Positions 235 to 18,300 are shown, counted from the first letter of the stretch. The stretch is 20,000 nucleotides of DNA from Candidatus Lindowbacteria bacterium RIFCSPLOWO2_12_FULL_62_27 (GCA_001784175.1 MFPR01000014.1:55797-75796), one strand, 5' to 3'. Translations and numbers: made by a program. The notes: generated from the sequence alone by a model not told the origin.

Positions 235-2613
235 TCAGGGCGACAGACTCGGCCGGCAAATCAAGAGGCCCACGTACGCGATCAGTCCCAGTCCTGAAAG
301 CCATGCGCCGAGCCGGGCCAGGGGCGGCTCGTAGGCGAGGTCGATTTTGTGCTCGCCCTTGTCCAGCACGAGTCCCATGAATCCGATGTTGACCTTGCGC
401 AGATCCTGCCGGCGGCCGTTGACGGTTGCGGTCCAGCCCCGATCGAAAGGAATGGAGAGAAAGAGGATCTTCCGCCGGTCCAGCCTGAGCGTGCCCCGGA
501 TGAGATTCTGCCGGTATTCGGAGATCGCCAGCGAGTTTTCCTTCAACCGGCCCATCGACCGGACCAAGTCGTCCGCCGGCAGGTCCCGTGAAACGGTGGT
601 GATGGACTCCAGGCCGGCAAATTCGCCCTTGTCCGCGGGATCGATCACGCAGGCCCGCAGAAACGCCAGGGGTTTGACCGGGGCCTCCAGCGACTTGAAA
701 TCGCTGTGGAGCATGTAGGCGTCATAGGCGTACCCCAGCGGGAGAAAAAAATTGTTCTTGTAGAGATGAACATGCCCAAACGTTGCCACCTTTTCGTATC
801 CCAACTGCGGGAGATTCGTGGCCGTGCGGCGCGTGAGGGCATATTTGACGGCGAGCATCGTACGTATCATCGGATGGGCTTTTTCGACGCCGTCCGTCAC
901 GTGCGTGGACAGCTCGTCGGTTGGATCGATCACGCCCGCCTCTCCGAGAAACCGGATGTAATTGATTTGATTGAATGAATAATAGCTGGAGGTCCCCCGA
1001 AATCCCTGGATCTTCGCGTCATTGATCGAATAATGCATGGCCGGGCTGGACGAGTAATCTTTCGTGACGCGGAAAAATTCCGTGTCGGTGGCGTTCAGCC
1101 AGGCCACCGCGTCGACGGTGTAGTCGTTGTATCCGGTTTTCTCGTGAAGCGACGCGGCCGTCAGCGCGGATCTCGCGTCGATGGTTTGCACCGCGAAGTA
1201 GCCCATCTCGGCGGCGACGCTCGCCACAAGAAGCAATCGCGACACCCTGCCGAGGTTGCCGGCGCCCATCGCAAGCAGCAACACCGTATGCGCCGCCAGA
1301 AACGCGGCCGCCGCGCTCCGCAGGCCCGGGTCCACCCGCAGGCGGGGGTACGGGACAAACAAGACGACCAGGAGAACCGCGCACGTGACGATCAGGGTCG
1401 GCCGATCGAGTTTGGAGGAGCCGTCGATCAGGCCGAGGGCGCGCACGGCGAGGTGAATGATGAGAATCGTCAAGAACAGGGAAATGGTCCGATAATAATC
1501 GCCGCTGAACAGGTTGATCATGTACCTGAAAAATGGGAACACCAGAATCGCGACGGCGAGGGCGCAACCGCCGCCATACAGGCGACGGGTCTTGCGATCG
1601 GAGAGGGAAAAAAACTGCGGCAAAAGAAGGAGGCTGAGCAGGCCGGCGTAGAGAAGCGGCGCCTCGAAGTAATTGCCCCAGCCCCGGAACGCGCTACCGG
1701 CGCCCAGGAGGTCGTTCGAAAACAGGCGTAGCAGGATGGTGAGCGACTGTCCAAAGGTGTTGGTTTCCAATATCTGTTTCGCCGCCAGCTTGCTGAAGAG
1801 GGAGACCTCGCCGCTGACTCGCGGGCTCTGCAGCATCTGCAGGACGCCCGTCATCACGTACACGGCGCCCATGAGGACCCCGAGCGCCCACAGCCCGGCC
1901 AGCTTCGTCAGAAACACCGCATAGGCCCGCCCGAGCGGCCCGCGCTCCTCCCAGAAACGCAGCGTCGCGTATGCGGCCAGAAAGACCGTATCCATATACA
2001 GGAAATACGGCTGATCGATGCCGGCGCAGGCCACCGCAACAGGAATCAGACCCCAGCGGGACTGTTTGAAGAACCGCTCAAAGGCGTACAACAGGAATGC
2101 CACAAACATCGCCTCGGTCGGCGGAGAACGCCATGTGCCGCCCAGGACCATGTACCCGCAGAAGGTGTACAGGAGCGCGCCCATTCCCGACGCATAGGCC
2201 GAAATCCCCAGAAGCGACAGATAGCGGAAGAAGAAAACGCCGCACAACAGGATTTTCAGCAGATGGACATAAATCACCGCATACGGAATCAGCCGCGTCG
2301 GAAACAGGCTGAGGAGCAGCGCGGTCGGCTCGTTGATGGAATACGGAAAAATGTTCTGGCCCGCGCCCTGCTGAAAGGACCACCGCGGAATGCCGTCGGA
2401 CCTCAGATACTCCCGCAGGTGCACGTAGTGCGGATAATGCTCGTTCATCGTGTCGCTGCCGATGTCCTTGAAGAGAAAAATTTTCTCGAACAGCAGAAAG
2501 TCCTTGAAAACGATGAAAACGAGCAGCGCAATTAGAATGCCGAACGCGAGACCGGCCCCCGGGCCGCCCCGCGGGCGACGCAAGTCGGGCGGGTCCACGG
2601 AAACTTTTTTCAT
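235..2613 (-). CDS. YfhO-family polytopic membrane protein (putative GT-C glycosyltransferase), ~792 aa
   Basis: Many TM segments. The N-terminal loop reads D..NEHYP...L...L....IP.WSF..GAGQN and the C-terminus reads LFLSIPFDRGWTATVNG...VNIGFMGL.L..GEH.I.L.Y.PP...LG, both typical of YfhO. Start moved from 2811 to ATG 2613 (MKKV...) because the upstream extension overlaps the tRNA-like element and the hairpins. Confidence 0.85.
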   Translation of the reverse strand: MKKVSVDPPDLRRPRGGPGAGLAFGILIALLVFIVFKDFLLFEKIFLFKDIGSDTMNEHYPHYVHLREYLRSDGIPRWSFQQGAGQNIFPYSINEPTALLLSLFPTRLIPYAVIYVHLLKILLCGVFFFRYLSLLGISAYASGMGALLYTFCGYMVLGGTWRSPPTEAMFVAFLLYAFERFFKQSRWGLIPVAVACAGIDQPYFLYMDTVFLAAYATLRFWEERGPLGRAYAVFLTKLAGLWALGVLMGAVYVMTGVLQMLQSPRVSGEVSLFSKLAAKQILETNTFGQSLTILLRLFSNDLLGAGSAFRGWGNYFEAPLLYAGLLSLLLLPQFFSLSDRKTRRLYGGGCALAVAILVFPFFRYMINLFSGDYYRTISLFLTILIIHLAVRALGLIDGSSKLDRPTLIVTCAVLLVVLFVPYPRLRVDPGLRSAAAAFLAAHTVLLLAMGAGNLGRVSRLLLVASVAAEMGYFAVQTIDARSALTAASLHEKTGYNDYTVDAVAWLNATDTEFFRVTKDYSSSPAMHYSINDAKIQGFRGTSSYYSFNQINYIRFLGEAGVIDPTDELSTHVTDGVEKAHPMIRTMLAVKYALTRRTATNLPQLGYEKVATFGHVHLYKNNFFLPLGYAYDAYMLHSDFKSLEAPVKPLAFLRACVIDPADKGEFAGLESITTVSRDLPADDLVRSMGRLKENSLAISEYRQNLIRGTLRLDRRKILFLSIPFDRGWTATVNGRRQDLRKVNIGFMGLVLDKGEHKIDLAYEPPLARLGAWLSGLGLIAYVGLLICRPSLSP

Positions 2614-2644
2614 GATTCGGAAGAGGCTACCACACGAGGACGCG

Positions 2645-2785
2645 CCGTCCAAGGCAAACTTGGCCCTTGTGCGGCCCTTGTGGCAACGGGGACAATACAT
2701 CCCTGATGTCCCCGTCGCACCCTGGGCAATTTTCGTACTTCCTGTACGAAAATTGCCCTGCTCCAGGGACAATACATCCCTGTAT
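2645..2785 (-). repeat. Array of GGA-loop hairpins and direct repeats between the tRNA-like element and yfhO
   Basis: 17-nt direct repeat GGGACAATACATCCCTG at 2689-2705 and 2766-2782. Perfect 15-bp stem 2724-2738/2744-2758, with loop AGGAA on the minus strand. Tandem GGCCCTTGTG at 2662-2671 and 2673-2682. Confidence 0.85.
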
Positions 2786-2851
2786 GCCGGAGGAGGGACT
2801 TGAACCCACACGGGGGGTGACCCCCACGGGATTTTGAGTCCATCCAGCGGC
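2785..2851 (-). pseudogene. Truncated (D-arm-less) tRNA-Leu(CAA)-like element
   Basis: Minus strand 2840-2785 is 50/56 identical to tRNA 3157-3212. It has the CAA anticodon loop, variable arm, T arm and 3' acceptor strand. The 5' part is only GCCGCTGGATG, so the D arm is absent. Confidence 0.85.
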
Positions 2852-2977: not shown

Positions 2978-3041
2978 CATTTTCGCGAATGAATCGGGTT
3001 GGCCACCGTATGCGATTCCCTCTTTTCTATTTCAATATTCC

Positions 3042-3050
3042 TGATAAGAT
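3042..3050 (+). promoter_or_regulatory. Putative extended -10 promoter of tRNA-Leu
   Basis: TGnTAAGAT at 3042-3050, downstream of an AT-rich stretch. No clear -35. Confidence 0.4.
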
Positions 3051-3062
3051 TCGTGTGGTTGT

Positions 3063-3127
3063 CGTCCCTGCCTGACAGAATGACATCCATGTCATTCGAG
3101 GGCAGGGACGTAACCATCCATGGTTAC
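3063..3127. repeat. Two palindromic hairpins with CATCCATG apices, abutting the tRNA 5' end
   Basis: CGTCCCTGCC (3063-3072) pairs with GGCAGGGACG (3101-3110) and encloses GAATGACAT-CC-ATGTCATTC (3078-3097). The second hairpin is GTAACCAT-CC-ATGGTTAC (3110-3127). Confidence 0.8.
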
Positions 3128-3212
3128 GCCGGAGTGGCGGAACGGCAGACGCGCTAGACTCAAAATCTAGTCCGGGTCACCCCGGGTGTGGGTTCAAGTC
3201 CCTCCTCCGGCA
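3128..3212 (+). tRNA. tRNA-Leu(CAA), class II, CCA not encoded
   Basis: Acceptor stem GCCGGAG/CTCCGGC plus discriminator A. D arm GCGGAACGGCAGACGC. Anticodon arm CTAGA-CTCAAAA-TCTAG. Long variable arm CCGGG-TCAC-CCCGG. T loop GTTCAAGTC. Confidence 0.97.
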
Positions 3213-4935: not shown

Positions 4936-6380
4936 AAATCGAGCGAGAACTTCAGGCGCATATAATTTTCAGCCCCGCGGTTCGTATACGCGGGGCCGGG
5001 CGAGAACCGGCCGAATTTGAACTGGTAGCTGATGTCCACGGCGGCTTTCCAAGCGACCGTCATGTCAAACTCCGAGCCGATCTTGCGAGACGATCCGGCG
5101 CCGGACGAAATGTAGGGATCCGACGTCACACCGGATGCCTTATCGCGCGAGTAAAGGTAGTACGTCGGCTGAACGGACATATCCGACCACAGCCGGTTGG
5201 CAGACCATCCAAACGGTTTCACGCTGGCGCCGAATTTGTAGACTTGGATATTGGTCAGCTGCGGGGCAAGCGCATATCCGAGCGTCAATCCGCCAAACGA
5301 GATGAACCGCTCATCCTTGCCGGCCGTGCTTCCGCCGAATGACGAGTTTGCGCTTCCCTGGGCGTCGCCGTCGCCGCTGCCGGCGGCGTACTCGACATAG
5401 AAACTGGGCGCCATGGCCGTCGCGAAGTAATACCGCAACCCTCCGTCGATCGCGCTGGATGAAATGCTGACTTTTGTAGTTCCGCCCGATGGATACGTTT
5501 TGCCGGACTCCTGAATATACATCGACCAGTATCGCAGATTGCCGATCACCCGTCCCTCAAATCCCAACCCGTAATAGAGCGAATCCAATTGATGGGGTTG
5601 GCCGGTTGCGGGATTGACGGATTCGTCATTCCGGTCCTGATTCATAAGCCCGAACAGATCCAGTGTCTGGGTCTTCATGAATTTCACTTTCCATTCCATA
5701 CCGTAGAACCAGCGTTTGGTCCGGCCCGATCCCGGTGAGAAATTGTCGATGTTGTCATCTGAAGGATTCTGCCGGGCGAAAAACACCTGAAACTCATTGA
5801 TCCGTGAAAGGGCCTTGTAATGCAAACCGTCAACCGTGAGTCCAAACGATATGCCGCGTTCGACCATGACGAACTGCCGGCCGAGCGTGATCTGATGTTT
5901 CCAGCCTCCCGCCGGATACTGTTGTTGCAGATACAGGAGATCGACCGCCGGTCCCACCATATCCCGGCGCCGGACTGCGCCTGTTGGCGTGGAATTGAGA
6001 GACTGGGTGGCTTTCATGCGCGCGTAAAATTGCGTCTTGCCTGACCGGCTGGCGACGTTGGTGAAAAATCGAAAATCGTTCTCCCACGTGTGGTCGAGGG
6101 AATCCTGCGCGGCCACATTCCTGTCGTTTTCGTCAGACGACGAATAAGATGGCGCGTACCAGCCGCCGAAATTCATGCGCCAGCCCAAACCGCGTGCGAG
6201 GCCGCGCGTGACCCATGAGGAGCTTCCCGAAAAATCCTGTGTGCGCTTGAGTTCGTCGAGCGTTTCAACCCGCTCCCGGCGGAGTTCTTCCTGGGACATC
6301 TGCGCGTATGAGCCGGCAGAAACCATGAGCCAGAAGCCGGCAGCCAGAATGAAAATCCCGATTCTGTATTTGACACTCAT
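4932..6380 (-). CDS. Outer-membrane beta-barrel protein, alginate-export (AlgE)-like
   Basis: Signal peptide, alternating amphipathic strands rich in aromatics and Gly, and motifs ITLGRQ, DGL, EYAAGSGDGD, KIGSEFD. Ends in a terminal beta-strand YMRLKFSLDL. ATGA overlap with the giant gene's stop. Confidence 0.7.
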   Translation of the reverse strand: MSVKYRIGIFILAAGFWLMVSAGSYAQMSQEELRRERVETLDELKRTQDFSGSSSWVTRGLARGLGWRMNFGGWYAPSYSSSDENDRNVAAQDSLDHTWENDFRFFTNVASRSGKTQFYARMKATQSLNSTPTGAVRRRDMVGPAVDLLYLQQQYPAGGWKHQITLGRQFVMVERGISFGLTVDGLHYKALSRINEFQVFFARQNPSDDNIDNFSPGSGRTKRWFYGMEWKVKFMKTQTLDLFGLMNQDRNDESVNPATGQPHQLDSLYYGLGFEGRVIGNLRYWSMYIQESGKTYPSGGTTKVSISSSAIDGGLRYYFATAMAPSFYVEYAAGSGDGDAQGSANSSFGGSTAGKDERFISFGGLTLGYALAPQLTNIQVYKFGASVKPFGWSANRLWSDMSVQPTYYLYSRDKASGVTSDPYISSGAGSSRKIGSEFDMTVAWKAAVDISYQFKFGRFSPGPAYTNRGAENYMRLKFSLDL

Positions 6381-9300
6381 CTAGCCACCGCCAGCTTGTC
6401 GACGAGTTTCGTGCCGGGCGTTTCGAGGATGTAAATGTAAACTCCCGACCCGACTTTCTGGCCAAACCGGTTGGTCGTATCCCAGATGACCAGATTGGAT
6501 CCGGGATTTCCCTGGTGCTTGAATTCCCGCACGAGCCGGCCGCCGACATCGTAGATTTTCAAAGTCACGTCACCGGCCACCTGCAGATTGTATTTGAACG
6601 TCATGCTGCCGGTTGTACCGTCCGGCCCGGGATTGGGGTATACGAACGTCTGGCTCTTGTCGAGATTGGGCGACAAAAACGCGCCCAGATATTCGGGCAA
6701 TCCCACCGCGACTGTCAGTTTCAACGACGATCCGGCGGCAAGAACGGCGGACGAGGATTTGCGCAGATTCACCGGCCCTTGCGGCAAACCCACGAGATAG
6801 GCGCCGTATTTTTCCGGCACGGATTCAAGATTGTTCCAATTTAACAGGATGTTGTCCTTCAAATCGCTCGACACACCCAATGACCAGCTCCTGGCGGTTG
6901 TCACCGGTTCCGCGTAGGCCGCCGCGAGTCTGTTGCCGTTCTCTGCCACAACTCCAAGCGAGACAAAATTGCTAGCCACCGGCGGCGGCTCGTATCGTTC
7001 AGCGGCGGTCGCTTCTTCCGCTTTTGAAACGACGCCGATATAATTCTGAAAATCCTGCATGCCGCCGGCCGCGGCGGTAAGTTGGATCGTCCAGTTCTGG
7101 TCCGACGCGGCATCCTGCTGATAGACCGCCGACAAAAGTTTAGGCGCCTGATTGAGAACCTCGGCGGCCGTTTCGGGTGGAACGGATGGGTTGGGATAAA
7201 TCGTCATGTTGCAGGCTTTTTTCGCGTACATAAAAAATCCGACCGTCGGTTTCAAATGTATTGCCGACAGGGATGGCCGATTGATATCCGGACCCCAAGT
7301 ATAGTCACTTGATCCGTTCCACCAATAGACAGCATTCTGGATTAATCCGGCGGCCTCGGCCTTGGCCGGCGTTAGTTTTTTGTCGCCGGTATCAAACCGG
7401 ACATCCGAGTCCCAGCTCACATAGAAATACTGCCCGCTGCCGACCTGATGCCAACCAGTCTTGAGGGCCACCGTTATGGTGTCATAACCGGCGGTTCCCT
7501 GGAAATCGATCGTGCCGCTCGCATTTTGCGGATCAAAGATCCAGTACCCGCGGCCGCGAACCAGCGCGGAGGGCGTGACATAGTCGCGTTCTCCTGCCGC
7601 CGTTCCCGCATCCTGATTCCATTCCCCGATGTTGGAGAGCGGAAATTTGGCTTTGATCGCATTCTGAACATCCGCGACCGTCAGCGACTTGTTGGGCGCG
7701 ATCATCTTGAACACCGACTTGGATATCTCGAGTCCGTCCGCATACGCCACAAAAGCATCCTTGAGCGCGGAGTTCGACGCAACGGTAACAGCGACATGGT
7801 AGGGTCCGCGACGGGCGCCGAGCGTCAGCGTGTCACAGGCCATCCCGCTGTTGTCCGTGATGACGGTACTCAGCGCCAGACTCGCTCCCGCGCCGCCCGC
7901 GGGGACGGCGATCGAGAACGTCACGGCCTGGCCCGGGACGGGATTACCGGTGTCGTCTTTCAACACGACGCAGAGCGGGCTTGGCAAGATTGTGGAGTGC
8001 GTGCCCAACTGGTGGTTGTTGAGAAGAATGATCTTTGTCGGCAACCCCGGAACCGCAACCCTGAACCGCCTCGACGTAGAGTTCAATCCGACATTCCGCA
8101 ACCGGTCAATGGCCCGGACACGCCAGTAATACGTGCCGTCGCTAAGATTGGCCACGGTGTCGCTCGTCCTGCTTGCAGAAACCGTGTCAGCAAACAGCAA
8201 ACTCGAAAATGTCGGTGAGCTTGAAAGCTCCAACACGTAAGAATCGATCCCAACACTATCGGCAAGATTCTTCCACGACAGAACCGGTCTCGATGTCGTC
8301 GTTTCCTGTTGATCCGCCGGCGAGGCCAACTCCACCCTGTCGGCGTGGGTGTCCAGCAGAAAGACGCGCACGGCGGTATCGACCTTCCCGACCCGGTCGC
8401 GGCCGATGACCCGCCAATAGAATGTGTCCTCGCTTGAAATCCTTCTGACGATGCTTGCGGCGCTCGTATCCACCACGCTGTCTGTGAGGACGGAGAAAGA
8501 CGCCGCGTTCGACATCTGCCAAGTATACGTCTCGGCGTCGTCCGTCGACCACGAGAACGTCAAAATGGCCGACGTCGTTTCCAATCCGTTGCCGGGCGAG
8601 GCAAGAATAATCTTCACGCCGGTATCAAACCGGAAGGCAAAGGTCGTCGAGTTAAGACCAATGTTTTTCAGATGATCCACCGCGCGCACGCGCCAGTAAT
8701 ATGTATCCTCCTCGGTCAACGCCGGTACCGTATCGGTCGTCAGCGAGCCGCGGACGGTATCGACAAAGACAAACGACATAAACGCGGATGTCCGGGAAAC
8801 TTCCACGACGAAACTGTCGATCCCGACACTGTCCGACACACTCTGCCATGTGAGCGCCGGCTTGGTATCCACGATCGCAACCCCGTTTGCGGGCGATACC
8901 AGCGTCACTTGAACGACAAACGTGTCGATGACCAGGCCGCGCGGCGACGAGTAGGAACTCAGGTTTCCGAGTTTATCGATGGAACGAATGCGCCAGTAAT
9001 AGGTATCGTTGGCAGACAGGATGAGCGTGTCGCTGGTCCGCGTGCCGACGATGGTATCGGCGAATACAAGAGATGAAAACGAAGGAGTCAGTGACACCTC
9101 AATCACGTAACTGTCGATGCCCACGCCGTCGATGACGGCGCCCCAGCTCACGACCGGTCGGACGTTGGTCGTCTCGTGGCCGTCGGCCAGCAGCAGAGAC
9201 GAAACCGCCGCCGCATCCGTATCGACAACCAGCCGGCGGGACGGCGGCGAATCAAGTGTGTTTCCGAGTTTGTCGATTCCTCGCACTCGCCAGAAGTACG

Positions 9301-12300
9301 TGTCGTTATACAGGCCGGTCAGCGTGTCGGTCGTGCGGTTTGAAGCCACGGTGTCAACGAACACCAGCGTCGAAAACGCCGTTGTCTTGGAAACTTCAAC
9401 AACGTAGAAATTAATACCGACACTGTCGGCGAGAGAGAACCAACTGACAACCGGTTTGACGTTCGTGGTTTCATGCGCATCGGCCGGCCGGTCCAGCAAA
9501 ACCTGCCCGGCGGATGTATCGACAACAAACCCTCGTGCCTGGGAATTGGCTCCAATATTTCCAAGCCGATCTATGGCTCGGACACGCCAGAAATATGTGT
9601 CATTATAAAGGTTCGACAGAGTGTCGCTGGTTCGCAGTCCCGAAACGGTGTCAGTAAAAATGAGAGCGGTGAATAACGTAGATTTGGACACTTCGACGAT
9701 GAACGAATCGATGCTGACGCTGTCTGCGAGGGCAACCCAGGACACAAGCAGTTTAGTGTTCGATGTTTCATACCCATCTGCCGGTGAAAGAATCGAAACC
9801 TGTCCTACAGACGCATCCAACATCACCGAGCGCGCCGCTGTCGTATCAACGGCGCCGTATGTGTCCTTCGCAATGACTCGCCAGTAAAATGTGTCCTCGT
9901 AGGGCAGATTTCGCACAAGAGCAGTTACTTTTGTATCGACCACGCTGTCTGCGGACGTAGAAAACGACGATGTCCTAGAGAGCTGCCAGGTGTAGGTTTC
10001 CGCCGTTGGAGAAGACCATTCAAACCTTAGCCATATCGAATTAGTCTCGTATCCGCTCGCGGGTGATATGGCGGTGACTGACACAACCGTACTTACCTTC
10101 GTGCCTTTCGTGTCGGTGAAAAACGATTGATTCATCCGCGTGGCGGCGTCAAATGAAGTGAGTCTATAAAAATAGGTGTTCCCAGCGGCGACTGCGGTGT
10201 CGATCCAGCTTGTGTCCGACGCACCCGCCGTCCAAACGAGATTGGCCGGATTGGCCCAGTTGTTGGTATCCGCCACATTGGTCAACCTGTATATGTTTAC
10301 GCCGGCGTGTCCCACGGATCCGCCGTTGGTTTCTTCATTGACTGTCGGAATCGTCCATGTAATTTGAATCTGGCCGGCGGTGACTGTATCAAGGATCACA
10401 GTTGCCGGAGGCGCCGGCGCGGTGGTGTCGGCGCCAGCAGATGTGTCTGCGGGACCGAGACGATAAGGCACATACGTGACAGAACCCCCTGCAGCGTTTT
10501 TCAATCGATTGGCTATCGCCAGCTCGTCGGTAGTGCTCCACCAGTTTCTGCTAAAATTCACTGTTTGGTTTGTTCCATTGAACACACCGCTGTCCCTGTT
10601 CACCGACGCTGGGGTAATGTTATTTTTCACGATTGTGTTGGCGGTGGATGTTCCATCCAAATAGAACTGATATCCACCATTAGAATCTGATGCATTTTGA
10701 ACAAAAACATTCGTTTCTGCGGAACTCAAATAGTACCCATGACTGAAATTGCTCGTGCTCGAGTTGTTGGAAAGAACATTTGAACTGGAGGTTGACAACC
10801 ATACCCCGAAATACGCGTTCTGATGGGCCCGGTTATTGTCCAATTTGTTGTTATTGCTTGCGCCATTCAGAAAAAAGCCGTATTGGGCGTTGCCTGCACT
10901 GTAATTGTCCATTAAAATATTGCTCGCGCACGAAATATTTAGAATAAATCCCGCCGCACTATTTCCAACGCTTTTGTTATTTTTTAGGATATTACTGTTC
11001 GCATTTTGCAAGAGAAAGCCGTAGGCGAGATTGTTTGAGCAGGTGTTGCCAATCAATGTGTTCATATTACTGTACGCGTTCAAAAAGATGCCGGAATTTG
11101 AATTGTCCACAACAAGGCAATTAATAATAGAATTCGAATCCGAATTATTGGTCAGGGTAATTCCCAAATCTCTGCTCAAACGAACCGTCACATTCTCCAG
11201 AGTCGAACTGTCAACGTTTACCCATTCGATACCGGCATGGTAATTGCGTATCCCAAGGTTCTTGACCAGAAGTCCTGATTGGGTGTCCGCAAATATTCCC
11301 TTGCGGCCCAAACTGCTATCGCCCCCCTCTAAAATTGTCGATGCCGAGTCCACGCCGATAATCGATATTCTATTTGTATCGATCACAATTGTTTCCGAAT
11401 ATATTCCGGCATCCACAAATATCGTGTCCCCCGATTTGGCTTTTTGAAGTGCTTTGGCAACGGATCGATATGGTTTCGAAGGCGAACCCTCGCCGCCAGT
11501 GTCAGATCCGAAAGCATAGGTGTAAGAATCTTCTACCACGTAACTGTCATTCACGTACCACTTCGGACCCGCATATGGGGCTGGGGTAGTGATCGCAAAT
11601 GTCTCTTCGGGCGCCCACACCGACCGCATCATGCCGCCGTCGACAGCCTGGACGGACCAGTAGTAGGCGCCTGCCGGCAAGGATCGGATGAGATAAGCGA
11701 AGGTGTCGTTCTGCACATTGCCGAGGATGGTGTTGCCGATTGAATCAGAGCTGTTGGTATCGGCGGCGACGATGTCGGCTTTGCCGGGGGCGGAACCGAC
11801 TCGCAGGTTGTACGTCATGGCATTGGCGGACGTGGAGTCGGTGGTGACTTTGGACCATGTGAGTACCATGGTATCACCCTGTAAAAACGATACGCCCTTT
11901 GGACTCAACAATGTCGGCATACTTGGTCTAATATTCATTGAACCGTTGGCATCGTTACGAAAGAGAATCAATCGATATGTTCCTGTACTTGATTGTCCAG
12001 AAACCGCCAAATCAAGGTCGCCGTCATTGTCGTAATCACCCCACTGAATTGAACTGTAATCGACACCTTGATTGACGCCCATGGGCTCTGCAACGTTTGT
12101 AAAACTATCGATTCCGTTATTCCTATAAATAATCACTCGCCTGCTTCCAGAGGCGGCAAGGTCAAGGTCTCCATCGTTATCGTAATCACCCCACTGAATC
12201 GAGCTATACGCAAGACCCACGTTCACGCCCAACGGTTCCAACACATTGATGAAATTATCACCGCCCGAGTTTCGAAATATAATAAACCGTTCACCACTTG

Positions 12301-15300
12301 TTATGCTGCGTCCGGAAACCGCAATATCCAAATCGCCGTCGTTATCGTAGTCACCCCACTGGATGGATCCATCATATACCCCCACACTGGCCCCCATTGG
12401 TTCAGCAACCTTTGCAAAACTATCGCCACCATTATTTCTATAAATGATGAATCTATAGGATGCACCATCATATCCAGAAACGGCCAGATCAAGATCACCA
12501 TCTCCGTCATAGTCACCCCACTGAATAGAACTCTCATCAAGACCTGATCCCGCGCCCATTGGTTCTGCCACTTTTGTGAAGGTCGTATCACCATTATTTC
12601 GATACAGGACCAATCGTCTGACTACTCCATCGAACCCAGAGACAGCCAAATCCAGGTCACCGTCATTATCGTAGTCACCCCACTGAATTGACCCTTTGTC
12701 GACCCCTCCCATACCGGGACTTGTCGGTTCGACGGCGCTTGTAAAACTACCCCCACCACTGTTTCTGTAGATAACCAATCTTCTGGTTGAATTATCATCA
12801 AACCCCGAAATGGCCAGATCAATGTCTCCATCGTTGTCATAGTCGCCCCACTGGATCGAACTCCTGTCTACACCTCCACCAGGTATCAAGGGCTCGGCCG
12901 CATTTGTAAAGCTACCGACGCCGTTATTACGAAAAACAATCAAGCGTCGATACAGCCCATCCTGTCCTGATATCACCAAATCCAAATCCCCATCTCTGTC
13001 GTAATCACCCCACTGAATAGATCCGTCATACACTCCTGAGCCGGCTCTGACCCCCATCTCCGTGTCTAGTGTAAAGCCAGAAGGCTTGGCTGATACGATG
13101 CTGTCGGAGTAAAAAGATTCATTCGGAATGGTAGCACTATCCCTGGTGGTAATCCTGTAGTGGTGCGCCATACCTAGTGTTGCGGTTGTGTCTGTATAGG
13201 TTTGTCCCGAACTTGTTCCAATCCGAATCCAGCTCGACGTATCCACCATCGGCGCGCGATAAACTTGATACTGGTATACGGCTGGCACACCCGTGACACC
13301 TTCTTCATTCGCCGACACAGACGACCAACTCACATTCACCTGCCCCGAACTCTGCGGTGCTGTCGCCACTACCGTGTCTGGCGCTTTGGGTGCAACCGTG
13401 TCCACTCCTAGCGCTGTGTCCACAGGCCCGAAACGATAGGGAAGAAATGACGAGGCCGTATCCCTGACCCTTGCCGCTATGACTGACTCATCCGTCGAAC
13501 CATACCAGTTACGCGCGATGTTCTGCACCAACCCAGACGAGTTGCCGATTGCGGCGATCGTGTTGTTGTAAAAGTTGTTCTTGGCAATCGTATTGTTCCT
13601 TGTCGTTCCGTACAACCACACGCCGGAGTCGCCGCCGGCGACGTCGTTTTGCGCGATCGTGTTCGTATCGGCATTATAAATAAATGCGCCGGCCCGGGTG
13701 TTGGATGCGATGCGGCAATTCGAGACCAGGTTGTCGTTGGAGGAGCCGCTGATATAGACACCGTAGAGCGAATTCGTCAGGATCGTATCGCCGATGATGC
13801 GGTTGCCGCCTGAACTACTTTCGGCCGCGATGCCGTATTGGGAATTGGAACTTGCGGTATTGTTGATGATGGTGTTGGCTGTGCAGGAGGATATCAGATT
13901 AATGCCCACAGAGTTGCCTGTGGATGAGTTATTTTGAATCAGGTTGGAGCTCGAACCCGATACGATGTAAATGCCTCTATAGGTCGAGGAGATGGCGTTG
14001 CCTTGAACGACGTTGTTCGACCCGGCCTGCAATATAATGCCGTCGCTTGTCGGCCCACTCACCGTGTTGACCGTTACTGTGCATCCTTGGCCGTAGTACA
14101 GCCCGATCCCCCAGTTGCCGTTCGACGCGGAGGTGTTGCCGGAGACGGTGTTGTTCCATCCGGACACAAAAATGCCGTTGGTGCCGTTGGATTTCGTGGT
14201 GTTGCCACTCACCAGGTTACTCGAGCCGTAGAGATGGATTCCGGAGCTGTTGGCCATCGTGCCGTTCGTGTTAAAACTACCGATGTTGTTCGTCAGGGTA
14301 TTCGAATCGCATCCGTTCAGGAGATATATCCCGTTGTTGGTGGAGCTTACGCTGTCCGAGACGATGGCCGACAGATCGACATTCAGGAAATGAATTCCGA
14401 TGAGCGCGCCTGTCACGCCAATGTTTTTGACGGTCAGGCCGACTTGGGTGTCGGCATAAATGCCGTAGAGACCAGAAACTGAACTATCGCCGGGCGGGTC
14501 GATGACCGTGGCGCCGGAGTCCTTGCCGATCAGCGAAATATAATCGGTGTCGATGACGACAGTTTCCGAGTAGAGGCCGGCGTCAACGTAGATCGTGTCG
14601 CCAGACTTGGCCTTTGACAGTGCTTTGGCGATCGAGCGGTAGGGGAACGTCGAAGAACCATTGCCAAGCGTATCGGACCCGGCCGAATAGGTATAAGAAT
14701 CCGCCGCAGTATACTGATCGTTCACAAACCATTTCGGGCCGCTATAGGAAGAAAGGACGATAAACATTTCGGGCGCGGGCCACACGGATCGTTGCATGCC
14801 GCCGTCCACCGCTTGGGCGGACCAGAAATATTGGCCGTGGGGGAGATTCTTCAAAGATGCCGTCGTACCGTTCTGGACATTCCCGAGGATTGTGTTTCCG
14901 ATGGAATCAGATGAATTTGTATCTGCGGCGGCAATATTCGTGCTTAGCACAGTGGTGCCGACCCGAATATTATAGGTCTGAGACGCCACGGGTGTTGCAT
15001 CTCCCAGCGCGGAGGTCCATGCAAGTGTTACCGTATCGATCTGACTGAAGGTCGTACCTTTCGGAGAAACAAGAGTTGGCGCCGGCGGTCTTACGTTGGA
15101 AGGACCAGTTAAATCGTTGCGATAAACTACGAGCCTGTACTGCGATGTCGCGGAGTTATAACCGGCGGCGGCAAAATCAAGGTCGCCATCATTGTCGTAA
15201 TCGCCCCACTGGACGGATGAATTCCCATTACTGCCATCGACCCCGGCGTTTACTCCCATGGGTTCAGCAACATTCGTGAAGTTGTCTGATCCATTGTTTC

Positions 15301-18300
15301 TGAAAACTATTAATCGTGAAGAAGATGGACCATAACCGGAAACGAGCAAATCAAGATCTCCGTCGTTGTCATAGTCTCCCCACGCAATCGACGATCGCTG
15401 AACGCCGGTGAGGCTTGCCACATTGGTAAAAGTATTTCCGCCGTCATTTCGATAAATGATCGTTGATGCGCCACCCGGCTGAGCGAATCCGGAAACCGCC
15501 AAGTCCAAATCACCGTCGTTGTCATAGTCTCCCCACTGGATTGATGACAACTGCAGCCCGCTTGTAGATCCACCCAGCGGTTCCGCAACATTTATAAATG
15601 TTTCTCCGCCGTCGTTTCTATAGACGGTCAATCGATAACTGGTTGAGTTGTCCAATCCGCTAACTGCAAGATCGATGTCACCGTCGTTGTCGTAGTCACC
15701 CCACTGGATTGAACCCTTATATACGCCAACATTGACCCCCATGGGTTCTATAGCACTTGTGAAAGTACCGCCCCCGTCATTCCTATAGATAATCAGACGC
15801 GGCGATGTTGAGTTAATGGGCAATATCGTTCCAGAAACTGCAAGATCGAGATCGCCGTCATTGTCATAATCACCCCACTGTATAGAAGCATAGATGAGGC
15901 CTCCCCCTTCCCAAACATTCGTAAATGTTCCACTGCCATCATTTCGAAAGATGGTTAATCTTAGGCCTGATCCAACCCCGTCTCCCGCGACAGCCAAATC
16001 AAGATCCCCGTCTTTATCATAGTCACCCCATTGGACCGAACTTTGATGTACGCCCGCATTTGCCCCCATCGGCTCTGCGGCATTTGTGAATGTCCCGGCG
16101 ACGTTGCGATAAATGATCAGCCGGGCGCCGGATCCGGATGTGCCTGAAGTGACCAGATCCAAGTCACCGTCGTTGTCATAATCTCCCCATTGAATTGAGG
16201 CACTAAAAAATCCCGTTCCGGCTCCATACGGTTGTGCAACCAGTGTCCACACGGAAGACGAGGCACTTGCTGCAGCTTGAGTCGTATCCGAAAAAAAGCT
16301 CTGGTTCACAGGCGATCCTGCGTCATAAGATGTCAGTCGGTAGTAATAGGTATTTCCCCCTGTAACCGCATTGTCATTCCATGTGGTTTCCGTCGAGGTC
16401 GCTGTATATACGAGATTGGCGCCGTTAGCCCAGTTGGTAGTATCAGCCAGATTCGTCAGGCGATAAATCTTCGCCCCGCTGTAAGCGACCGCGCCCCCGT
16501 TCGTTTCTTCGTTGATCGTGGGTATAGTCCACGAGACTTTGATTTGTCCTGCGGCACTTGCGTCAAGCGTGACATTGGCTGGTGGGGCAGGGGCGGTCGT
16601 GTCTACTCCTGCAACTGTATCTACGATACCCAATCGGTAGGGAATGAAGAATACGGAGTCGCCGTTCGATTCTTGATAAATCTTACGCTTGATGGACACC
16701 TCGTCCGTCGTGCCCCACCAGTTGCGTATGAACGAGAATCTGTTTCCTGTGACGGTCGATGCGACGTATACACCGCTGTCCGGATTTTCCGGGGTGGTTC
16801 GGATGATATTTTTTTGGACAGTATCAGAGTGCGATGCTCCCACAATTTTGAATTGCCACAGGCGATTTGAATCAAGCGTGTTCTGGACGAAAACATTCTT
16901 GTTGGATGCGTTCAATAAAACGCCGTGCGAATTGTTGAAGCTGACGTTGTTTGAAAAGAAATTATTATCCGAGGAACCAAGTGCGATTCCTTCGGGATTA
17001 CCGATGACACTATTGCCGTGGAATACGTTGTTGCTGTTCAGATAATCGAGATAAATCCCGTATGTCCCGTTTGAGGTAAACGTGCTGCCCAGGACCGTAT
17101 TGTTGTCGGAATACGAAAGACGCATGCCGTCTTGGGAATTGCTCGTGGATTGTGAATTCTGAACCAATACGTATGTACAATGGTCTAAATCAATCCCAAT
17201 CTGTTCGTTACCGGTACTGACGCACTTTTCAATTGTGTCCGCCGAGGAGTAATAAGCATAAATCCCAAACCCACAGTTGCGAGTAGTTATATTTTCAATG
17301 CTGGATCGCGATACGTTGTCCAGGCGAATACCGTAGAATCCTCTTTGAATGAGAAGATTGCTTATTCTGATGGCAGAACGATTGGCCGCATATATGACCT
17401 TCAAATTCGATCCGGAACTGCTGTCACCGGCGTCGATGATTGTACCTGTCGGACTTGAATCGACTCCAATAATCCATATGGAATCGATACCGATCGTGAA
17501 GGATTCGGGATAGTGACCCCGGTCGATAAGGATCGTATCGCCCGCTTGGGCAAAGCTCAGCGCCTTGGCCGCCGTTCGATATGGTGAATTCTTCGTGCCG
17601 GTACCCGACGTGTCCGAACCACTGGCATACGTATACGAGTCCGACCCGGACACGTATGTATCATTCACAAACCACATTGTTTTCTGGGCATATGCAGTTT
17701 TCGTGTCGGAATTGAAGAAAGACTGATTTGTAATGGATGCCGAGTCGAACGAGGTTATCCTGTAGTAATAATTATTGCCGGTGGTGACGGTCGTATCGAT
17801 CCACGACGATTCAGAGGCTGTGGCAACATGAACCAGATTGACAGTATTCGCCCAGTTTGACGTGTCAGGCAAATTTTTCAATCGATAAATTTTAGCGCCT
17901 GTGTATCCGACAACACCGCCGTTGGTTTCTTCAGTCGTCGAAGGCCCAGCCCACGTCAATTGGATGGACCCGTCCGATGTGGCGGTAACCGTGAGCACCG
18001 GCGGAGCCGGCGCGGTTGTGTCGGCGCCCTGGGTGGTGTCCACCGTCCCGAGTCGATACGGTATGAAGACAATAGAGTCAGCACCCGTGGGAGCGCCACT
18101 CACCATTTTCTTAATCTTTATTTCATCGGTTGTATTCCACCAGTTGCGGGTGAAGGTGAATTTGTTAGCCGCGGCCGTCGAAGCATTGTACACTCCGCTG
18201 TCAGGATTGGTTTGCGAGGTATTGATATTGTTCTTTTGAATCGTATCACTTGAAGACGCGCCATCAAGATAAATTTGATATTTGACATTTGAATCCAATG

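Follow-up and report, generated by a model that had tools for sequence, protein, structure and literature searches.

The DNA considered here is a stretch of 20,000 nt, called the window, from the genome of Candidatus Lindowbacteria bacterium RIFCSPLOWO2_12_FULL_62_27 (GCA_001784175.1 MFPR01000014.1:55797-75796; assembly size 4.39 Mb, G+C 61%), hereafter G000. On the minus strand of the window, an array of hairpins with GGA in their loops lies between the remnant of a tRNA-Leu(CAA) gene and a yfhO-family gene (Table 1). An earlier note, made from the sequence alone, had described this array as CsrA/RsmA-type hairpins fused to the 3′ end of a tRNA-like element, and had suggested either a CsrA-sponge small RNA or a CsrA-controlled leader of yfhO. 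The observation is confirmed, and its interpretation is partly supported. The array is one complete and one 3′-truncated tandem copy of a lineage-specific palindromic repeat of approximately 80 nt with three hairpins, and it is likely that these two units are to be read as mobile insertions.

Table 1. Features around the hairpin array. Positions are counted from the first nucleotide of the window; R1 is the covariance model of the repeat unit described in the text.
Feature	Position	Strand	Basis and remarks
tRNA-Leu(CAA) relic, 3′ part	2785..2840	-	Anticodon loop, variable arm, T arm, acceptor 3′ strand, discriminator A2785; 5′ half missing
Repeat unit 1, complete variant	2706..2784	-	R1 model 39.3 bits, E 1.1e-6; RNAfold
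Repeat unit 2, 3′-truncated	2644..2707	-	nhmmer, 2644-2706 aligned to 2-52 of a unit profile with 81 positions, E 1.6e-4
Third unit of the family	3058..3127	-	Two AUGGAU hairpins; P1 end against the 5′ end of the opposite-strand tRNA-Leu(CAA)
Functional tRNA-Leu(CAA)	3128..3212	+	ARAGORN; Rfam tRNA 56.1 bits; no encoded CCA; antisense amid minus-strand genes
yfhO-family membrane glycosyltransferase gene	235..2613	-	Pfam YfhO, E 1.2e-62; ATG at 2613

The five sequence elements named in the earlier note are all present on the minus strand where it had placed them. AUACAGGGAUGU occupies 2785-2774(-) and starts at A2785, the equivalent of the discriminator base in the tRNA-Leu(CAA) copy. CCUGGAGCAGG and a perfect 15-bp stem with an AGGAA loop are found in the array, a 12-bp stem formed by GCGACGGGGACA and UGUCCCCGUUGC encloses AUCAGGGAUGU, and CCUUGGACGG lies at 2654-2645(-). 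RNAfold, applied to the 191 nt of 2600-2790(-), recovered the named helices with a minimum free energy of -85.6 kcal/mol. The mean of the shuffled sequences was -61.5, none of the 200 shuffles was as stable, and the z-score was -5.70. Plain GGA is mildly, twofold, enriched in the array (6 per 141 nt, where the rate of the genome predicts 3.0). For the extended word CA-N-GGA-[U/C]-G, 0.033 occurrences are expected and two are present. In the predicted fold, the GGA motifs of the array sit in hairpin loops or between helices.

The first hairpin of unit 1, designated P1, reads UACA-GGGA-UGUA. The outer stem of the unit is formed by GUCCCUG and CGGGGAC, and the inner hairpin is the 15-bp stem with the AGGAA loop. 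A near-identical relative of this unit lies behind tRNA-Met(CAT) on contig C30 of G000. Unit 2 retains the P1-like AUCAGGGAUGU. Of the outer stem it has the 5′ strand and lacks the 3′ one, and its inner hairpin, whose loop is UUGGAC, is degenerate. In the predicted fold, the 5′ arm of its outer stem (P2) pairs with the 3′ P2 arm of unit 1.

The tRNA part of the locus is a relic. Over 55 nt it shares 89% identity with the functional tRNA-Leu(CAA) nearby, with paired changes in the stem of the variable arm. It is called neither by ARAGORN nor by Rfam at the gathering threshold, and the sole permissive Rfam match is a weak tRNA-Sec (20.5 bits, 2789-2868). Contigs from four DNA runs break at 2735-2841, and one contig spans 2200-3500.

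A 15-nt core of the unit has seven exact copies in G000. Each of them lies 4 nt past a tRNA discriminator or belongs to the second unit of such an array, which bears out the association with tRNA ends that the earlier note had proposed to count. Reading of all 79 tRNA trailers, combined with a profile search, gave 12 canonical units (one of them at C2:3710-3791), which align over approximately 82 nt with three helices. P1 has 4 bp and an xGGA loop and stands outside the basal stem P2, an 11-bp outer stem formed by GUCCCUGUUGC and GCAACAGGGAC. P3 alone lies inside P2; it has 9-10 bp and an xGGA loop in the canonical units, and 9-15 bp across the family. The loops of P1 and P3 both read C-A-N-GGA-U/C-G. 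The covariance model R1 was built from these 12 units and searched at E≤1. Its 33 matches in G000 comprise the 12 training units (78-98 bits), 8 weaker sense matches, among them unit 1 of the window, and 13 opposite-strand echoes; the genome carries about 16-20 copies of the unit.

For the GTDB phylum, four genomes of one family (G000 to G003) were available; G002 and G003 belong to two genera that are sisters to that of G000. Across these genomes R1 gave 24 matches in G000, 4 in G002, 50-53 in G003 and none in G001, and a search of 37 genomes from other phyla was negative. The EF-Tu identity to metagenome-assembled genomes (MAGs) of many phyla does not exceed 76%, which implies a deep, poorly sampled lineage. 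The DNA of the window occurs in groundwater and soil metagenome runs, and among the runs listed as containing it there is no RNA run. An exact-pattern scan of genome contigs returned 39 stretches, approximately the chance number, with real units at five loci, all in one groundwater MAG record. The corresponding scan of metagenome contigs returned 58 stretches. Five loci resembling this assembly itself were set aside, and among the 53 that were scored only three (L235, L239 and L262) contain units. L235 is a near copy of the tRNA-Arg locus of G000. The other two, on metagenome contigs from elsewhere, hold a further variant with the same architecture, AUGGAU loops and no tRNA beside it.

Fifty matches from three genomes and two metagenome contigs were used to assess covariation. 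In this set 95.8% of cells are paired, and both sides have changed at 20 of the 24 pairs, which none of 500 shuffles reached; the slid-register controls gave 34-44%. It counts against these figures that the matches were aligned by fitting them to the model and that five of the rows are opposite-strand echoes. With the echo rows dropped, GGA is present in the P1 loop of 43 of the 45 units and likewise in the P3 loop of 43. The loops follow A-[G/U/A/C]-GGA-[U/C], and in many of them G stands ahead of GGA instead of a pyrimidine. The stems are wholly different between subfamilies while the identity of the loops persists. Since the stems vary and the GGA loops are kept, it follows that something sequence-specific reads the loops, on one strand. 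The GGA hairpins noticed earlier are real, strand-specific and conserved.

CsrA is a candidate for the reader of such loops. Its consensus from systematic evolution of ligands by exponential enrichment (SELEX) is RUACARGGAUGU, with GGA in hairpin loops. The P1 hairpin of unit 1 agrees with it at 12 of 12 positions, as had been pointed out before, and by the extended word both loops agree at at least seven positions, a fit far beyond what chance would give. Each unit carries two GGA-loop hairpins and with them two candidate CsrA sites. CsrA sites are short GGA hairpins that are generally paired (PMC4383904). The presence of csrA in the genome, which the earlier note had left to be checked, was established: G000 encodes it in an 85-aa open reading frame (ORF; L001:1402-1659, minus strand) with a PF02599 match of 93.1 bits at C20:113210-113368, within a cluster of flgL-like, fliW, csrA and flagellin genes. 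The flagellin leader beside csrA carries a CAAGGAUGA hairpin, with CAAGGAGG as its ribosome site. FliW-type systems are known to be arranged in this way, and the classic target of their CsrA is flagellin mRNA. Both csrA and fliW were also found in G002. Neither was found in G001 (88% complete) or G003 (81% complete); the flgL orthologue is missing there too, and the flagellin loci compared are not syntenic.

The position of the units in the genome follows a rule. Among the 14 loci detected by R1 in G000, seven lie directly behind a functional tRNA (Lys-UUU, Lys-CUU, Leu-UAG, Leu-CAG, Arg-GCG, Trp and Met), one behind the tRNA fragment of the window and one antisense against the 5′ end of tRNA-Gly(CCC). 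Three more are located 1-3 nt past the T-run of an intrinsic-terminator-like hairpin, one past the end of an ORF, and one within an ORF. The tRNA ends were also examined for a P1-like hairpin, defined as a 4-bp stem that closes a loop of 3-6 nt containing GGA and starts no more than 5 nt from the tRNA end. Outside one tRNA array on contig C27, such a hairpin is present at the 3′ end of 8 of 49 tRNAs and, on the opposite strand, at the 5′ end of 6 of 49, the background being 2.4% of 200,000 random windows. The 5′ side of the functional tRNA-Leu(CAA) of the window is positive in this test. In G002 and G003, four units lie past T-runs, two are antisense against tRNA 5′ ends (0 and 1 nt away), one array is behind tRNA-Cys, and one unit is elsewhere. 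P1 always faces the foot of a stem-loop, whichever DNA strand is considered.

Some further loci are of note in this respect. The array on contig C27 of G000 (C27:1563-11403) holds approximately 30 tRNA genes on one strand with most anticodons, and GGA-hairpin flanks are found at 2 of 30, about the background. At the G003 locus L029 (contig C65), a unit at 1501-1579 stands directly behind a 3′ fragment of a tRNA, comprising the T arm and the 3′ strand of the acceptor, which ARAGORN does not call. This mirrors the arrangement in the window; the end of the neighbouring tRNA may be taken along by the units, or be preserved by them. Two ORF-free stretches of G000 (C43:105400-105586 and C1:28990-29120; L009 and L010) end in strong T-run terminator hairpins directly before units. 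Small RNA genes that escaped annotation may lie there; an Rfam search of the two stretches at E≤1 gave no match.

The junction between array and tRNA bears on the proposal of a dedicated CsrA-sponge small RNA, in which a tRNA-like handle would be cut by the tRNA 3′-processing enzymes and the freed GGA array would titrate CsrA. Of the fusion described earlier, the junction itself stands, as it recurs at the seven functional tRNAs; the tRNA part at this locus is a dead fragment. The array begins exactly past the discriminator-equivalent base. None of the 79 tRNA genes of G000, whose trailers were read by eye, encodes CCA, and tRNA genes without CCA are cut by RNase Z-type enzymes after the discriminator, so such a cut is to be expected here. 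The presence of csrA and the same trailer on seven functional tRNAs also suit this proposal. However, the relic has lost its 5′ half, so that RNase Z and RNase P would find no acceptor stem, or a very poor one, although they need it. No sigma-70-like promoter site was found in the array, although the sigma-70 pattern may not be the host's type, and of three terminator-like sites (1.2 expected by chance) none ends the array. The same units are also found past terminators, antisense to tRNAs and within ORFs, and the array has no match to the CsrB/Rsm models. Such a small RNA is improbable, and we conclude that the array is not a dedicated tRNA-mimic/sponge gene.

The kinship with CsrB, RsmY and RsmZ suggested earlier did not hold up in the Rfam/Infernal searches. 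Rfam 15 found nothing in the array at the gathering threshold, CsrB, CsrC, RsmY and RsmZ had no match in the window at E≤10, and the permissive search gave only rsmX at 2656-2757(-), with 16.9 bits against a cut-off of 56. The array resembles CsrB and CsrC, as well as RsmX, RsmY and RsmZ, in having several GGA motifs in loops or between helices, with a density like that of RsmY and RsmZ. The array differs from a CsrB/Rsm-type sponge (clan CL00106) in that the model score is below gathering, no promoter or terminator of its own was found, and the units are dispersed instead of forming a single dedicated gene. The 3′ external transcribed spacer (3′ETS) of leuZ in E. coli was also compared. It reportedly is a single, tRNA-trailer-derived locus that sponges Hfq-dependent small RNAs by base pairing. 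The likeness lies in the proposal that the 3′ external spacer of a tRNA transcript gives rise to a regulatory RNA; the differences are that the proposed ligand here is the protein CsrA, that the module is repeated, and that the copy in the window is behind a dead tRNA fragment. The array was not accepted as a 3′ETS-derived regulator because its tRNA is a fragment; the trailer feature does hold at seven other G000 loci.

The positions at transcript ends also suggest that the units could be RNA 3′-end elements, whose stable hairpins would block 3′ exonucleases or aid termination or processing. Enterobacterial repetitive extragenic palindromic (REP) sequences are described as such elements. The folds of the units are very stable, copies stand at the 3′ ends of transcripts, and several units of G000 lie between convergent genes. 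This explanation leaves the invariant GGA loops, the antisense placement at tRNA 5′ ends and the in-frame copies in ORFs unaccounted for, and the copies past T-runs lie beyond the expected end of the transcript. We consider it unlikely.

The second function suggested earlier was that of a 5′ leader through which CsrA would govern translation of yfhO. The yfhO ATG lies approximately 30 nt downstream of unit 2 on the same strand, three further loci of G000 have units 31-101 nt upstream of ORFs with the same direction, and in G002 a unit occupies a flagellin leader. CsrA repression normally requires a site at the ribosome-binding site, however, and no GGA is present in the start and ribosome-binding region of yfhO (CCUCUUCCGAAUCAUG). 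Moreover, the units track tRNA ends and terminators and not particular downstream genes. This explanation is the least probable of those considered, and the array is probably not a yfhO riboregulator. The longest ORF of the locus, 858 aa from a GTG at 2811 (235-2811(-)), crosses both units and the tRNA fragment. The ATG start of yfhO is favoured by the Pfam match, and automatic annotation may over-extend the gene.

Evidence for mobility comes mainly from the comparison of G003 with G000. The expanded subfamily of G003 consists of 79-nt copies, some of them identical. An 18-nt P1-P2 pattern has 40 exact matches in this genome, 20 on each strand of the assembled contigs, and its reversed control has none. 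Units inside long ORFs of G003 were tested at 17 sites in 16 ORFs, all with homologues in G000; 12 are sense and 5 antisense. For 13 sites in 12 ORFs with a G000 orthologue, the alignment shows seven clean single gaps of 26-34 aa, five split gaps of 21-26 aa and one site with no gap, so that the unit is missing from G000 at 12 of the 13. The insertion is 81 nt or 27 codons, in frame, and reads DRDVQSPKLQ..., GQGCPVP... or, in antisense, PPPSQIEGNP.... All three sense frames of the ORF-internal units and only one antisense frame were seen open; the 12:5 orientation bias could thus follow from the frames alone. One copy of the G003 type is also present in G000 (C1:109196-109274), in frame inside a LeuD-like (aconitase swivel) ORF. 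Among 43 copies of the expanded subfamily, 35 have GCG directly in front and 36 end in GGCG, a pattern that fits, and does not prove, a 3-bp target duplication (78 + 3 = 81 nt).

Intergenic sites give the same picture. The orthologous flagellin leader is filled in G002, right past the T-run of a terminator, and empty in G000 (C2:29645-30049). The G002 unit (L024, contig C50, 1501-1580(-)) lies between that T-run and the ribosome site of the flagellin gene G002:C50:17072-17482, and the insertion includes two extra CAGGGAU words besides the unit. In the spacer between tRNA-Lys(CTT) and tRNA-Leu(TAG), the unit has opposite orientations in G002 and G000. Near its two ends the unit has an inverted repeat of 11 bp, made up of the P2 arms; terminal inverted repeats of the type seen in MITEs (miniature inverted-repeat transposable elements) are thus present. 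The family behaves as a non-autonomous mobile insertion. The dispersed, REP- or MITE-like copies that the earlier note had set against its own interpretation are largely what was found, a mobile-like repeat in both orientations relative to genes. A unit lands P1-first against the foot of a stable stem-loop, either the end of a tRNA gene on either strand or a terminator T-run, and one subfamily inserts as 81 nt in frame into protein genes. In the window, two copies lie behind the dead 3′ fragment of tRNA-Leu and ahead of yfhO, and a third adjoins the live tRNA-Leu(CAA).

Genes for RAYT-like transposases (Y1_Tnp) are present in all four genomes of the phylum, with 6-10 per genome. One of them, a 305-aa protein in G000 (L048, C41:76934-80275, ORF 1474-2391; 51.6 bits against the NCBIfam cut-off of 80), is flanked by 31-nt inverted repeats that are 97% complementary and unrelated to the units. 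Assignment of the units to REP/REPIN elements with RAYT was rejected, as they are not linked to any of the eight Y1_Tnp genes of G000. Another family of mobile palindromes, the Rickettsia palindromic elements (RPEs), is found as in-frame insertions in conserved protein genes, which stay intact. The present family resembles RPEs and bacterial MITEs and REPs as a small, palindromic, non-autonomous repeat with presence and absence at orthologous sites and in-frame insertion. It differs from them in having a target rule, by which it meets tRNA or terminator stem-loops at the foot, and in its two conserved GGA loops, and the likeness to RPEs is one of description.

The closest described analogue is TwoAYGGAY (Rfam RF01731, clan CL00106). 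In the window, its model gave 21.9 bits at 3021-3169(-), on the third unit, against a cut-off of 43; at 11 loci with canonical units, an Rfam search at E≤1 returned only tRNA and no TwoAYGGAY. Membership was rejected on this score and because one of the two hairpins of the present unit stands outside the basal stem, instead of both rising from it. TwoAYGGAY was proposed in 2014 as a CsrA-binding small RNA from motif matches (PMC4333381), and it is treated as a putative Csr/Rsm ligand or sponge with a 'mobile-element-like' expansion (10.64898/2026.09.22.753630, PMC4333381). The 2026 bioRxiv preprint leaves the link between mobility and Csr/Rsm regulation unresolved (10.64898/2026.09.22.753630). 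The two families share paired hairpins with A-Y-GGA-Y-type loops and many copies per genome with strong differences in copy number. The present family differs by often having G and not a pyrimidine before GGA, by its host, a deep-branching groundwater lineage with FliW-type CsrA, by abutting tRNA ends and terminators precisely, and by its 27-codon in-frame insertions. It shares the logic of TwoAYGGAY, fails its model and topology, and adds a target rule and in-frame insertions. The most abundant copies of the expanded G003 subfamily (A3/A4 rows, e.g. L063-L072) have a symmetric GAA/GAA mismatch within P2. Tandem G-A pairs in a stem are given as a mark of TwoAYGGAY in the 2014 paper (PMC4333381), and the similarity may be coincidence. 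Our literature search linked CsrA sites neither with REP or MITE elements nor with tRNA trailers, and a tRNA-linked CsrA sponge was absent among the matches listed, as far as their available text goes.

The preferred reading of the conservation of the loops is that both are CsrA sites; it is held tentatively and at somewhat less than an even chance. Each copy transcribed in the orientation of the unit would then be a putative two-site ligand for a CsrA dimer. Such ligands would include tRNA trailers cut free by RNase Z-type cleavage, 3′ untranslated regions and leaders, and arrays like that of the window would act as small CsrA sinks. Alternatively, the loops may be read by the enzyme that mobilises the element. 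They would then serve mobility only, with a single-strand-DNA enzyme (e.g. a dimer of a Y1/HUH-type transposase) or another recombinase recognising both GGA hairpins, and the likeness to CsrA sites would be coincidental. The family is demonstrably insertion-like, near-identical G003 copies indicate a recent burst, and RAYT-like genes are at hand in each genome. The rule that sets P1 against a stem-loop is symmetric on both DNA strands, which DNA-level targeting fits better than an RNA function, and the flip of orientation at an orthologous spacer points the same way. On the other side, no Y1_Tnp or other transposase adjoins a unit or is flanked by units, the loops are the same across subfamilies with unrelated stems, and the extended word fits the CsrA consensus in both loops. 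This alternative is doubtful, and it stands close behind the preferred reading of the loops as CsrA sites.

Several observations weigh against a family that is both mobile and bound by CsrA. A mobilising gene was not found, none of the eight RAYT-like Y1_Tnp genes of G000 adjoining a unit. A longer element with the same termini was not found either: in G000, correctly ordered termini at a distance of 0.7-3 kb from each other do not occur. Three facts argue against selection for GGA on the transcribed strand and count against a role at the RNA level: the units at tRNA 5′ ends run antisense to the tRNA, the unit of the Lys-Leu spacer is flipped in G002, and copies inside ORFs occur in both orientations. 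The genome with the most copies, G003, yielded no csrA or fliW; its assembly is incomplete, and this is evidence neither way.

Elsewhere in the window there is a giant ORF of 4533 aa (6377-19978(-)) with NosD/right-handed beta-helix and FG-GAP repeats. Beyond it on the same strand follow an Alginate_exp porin-like gene and a FecR-like gene, for whose protein no relatives were found. This run of genes ends at the live tRNA-Leu(CAA), which has the antisense orientation. The units also affect annotation: assemblies break at them, and ORFs are spuriously lengthened, as in the GTG-start yfhO frame of 858 aa.

To our knowledge, Gammaproteobacteria are the only group with established CsrA sponge RNAs, and in FliW-type systems the antagonist is instead regarded as a protein. 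A further possible reading is a transposable CsrA-binding module, for which the odds are unfavourable. A mobile element would seed pairs of near-consensus hairpins at transcript ends (tRNA trailers, 3′ untranslated regions, and leaders such as that of a flagellin gene) and in ORFs, and would thereby provide a distributed CsrA sink of variable copy number as well as new CsrA-controlled transcripts. The processing of tRNAs would free the sponge, and the system would be convergent with TwoAYGGAY, in a phylum that otherwise has FliW as the antagonist of its CsrA. If this is true, a repeat that spreads paired consensus CsrA hairpins would mean an RNA-level antagonist, or the rewiring of the regulon, in a FliW-type system. 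The family would be a second, independent case, with a simple 80-nt unit, for the link between mobility and Csr/Rsm regulation raised for TwoAYGGAY. Whatever the role of CsrA, the target rule and the insertions of 27 codons in frame characterise an RPE-like element, in a candidate phylum represented here by four genomes.

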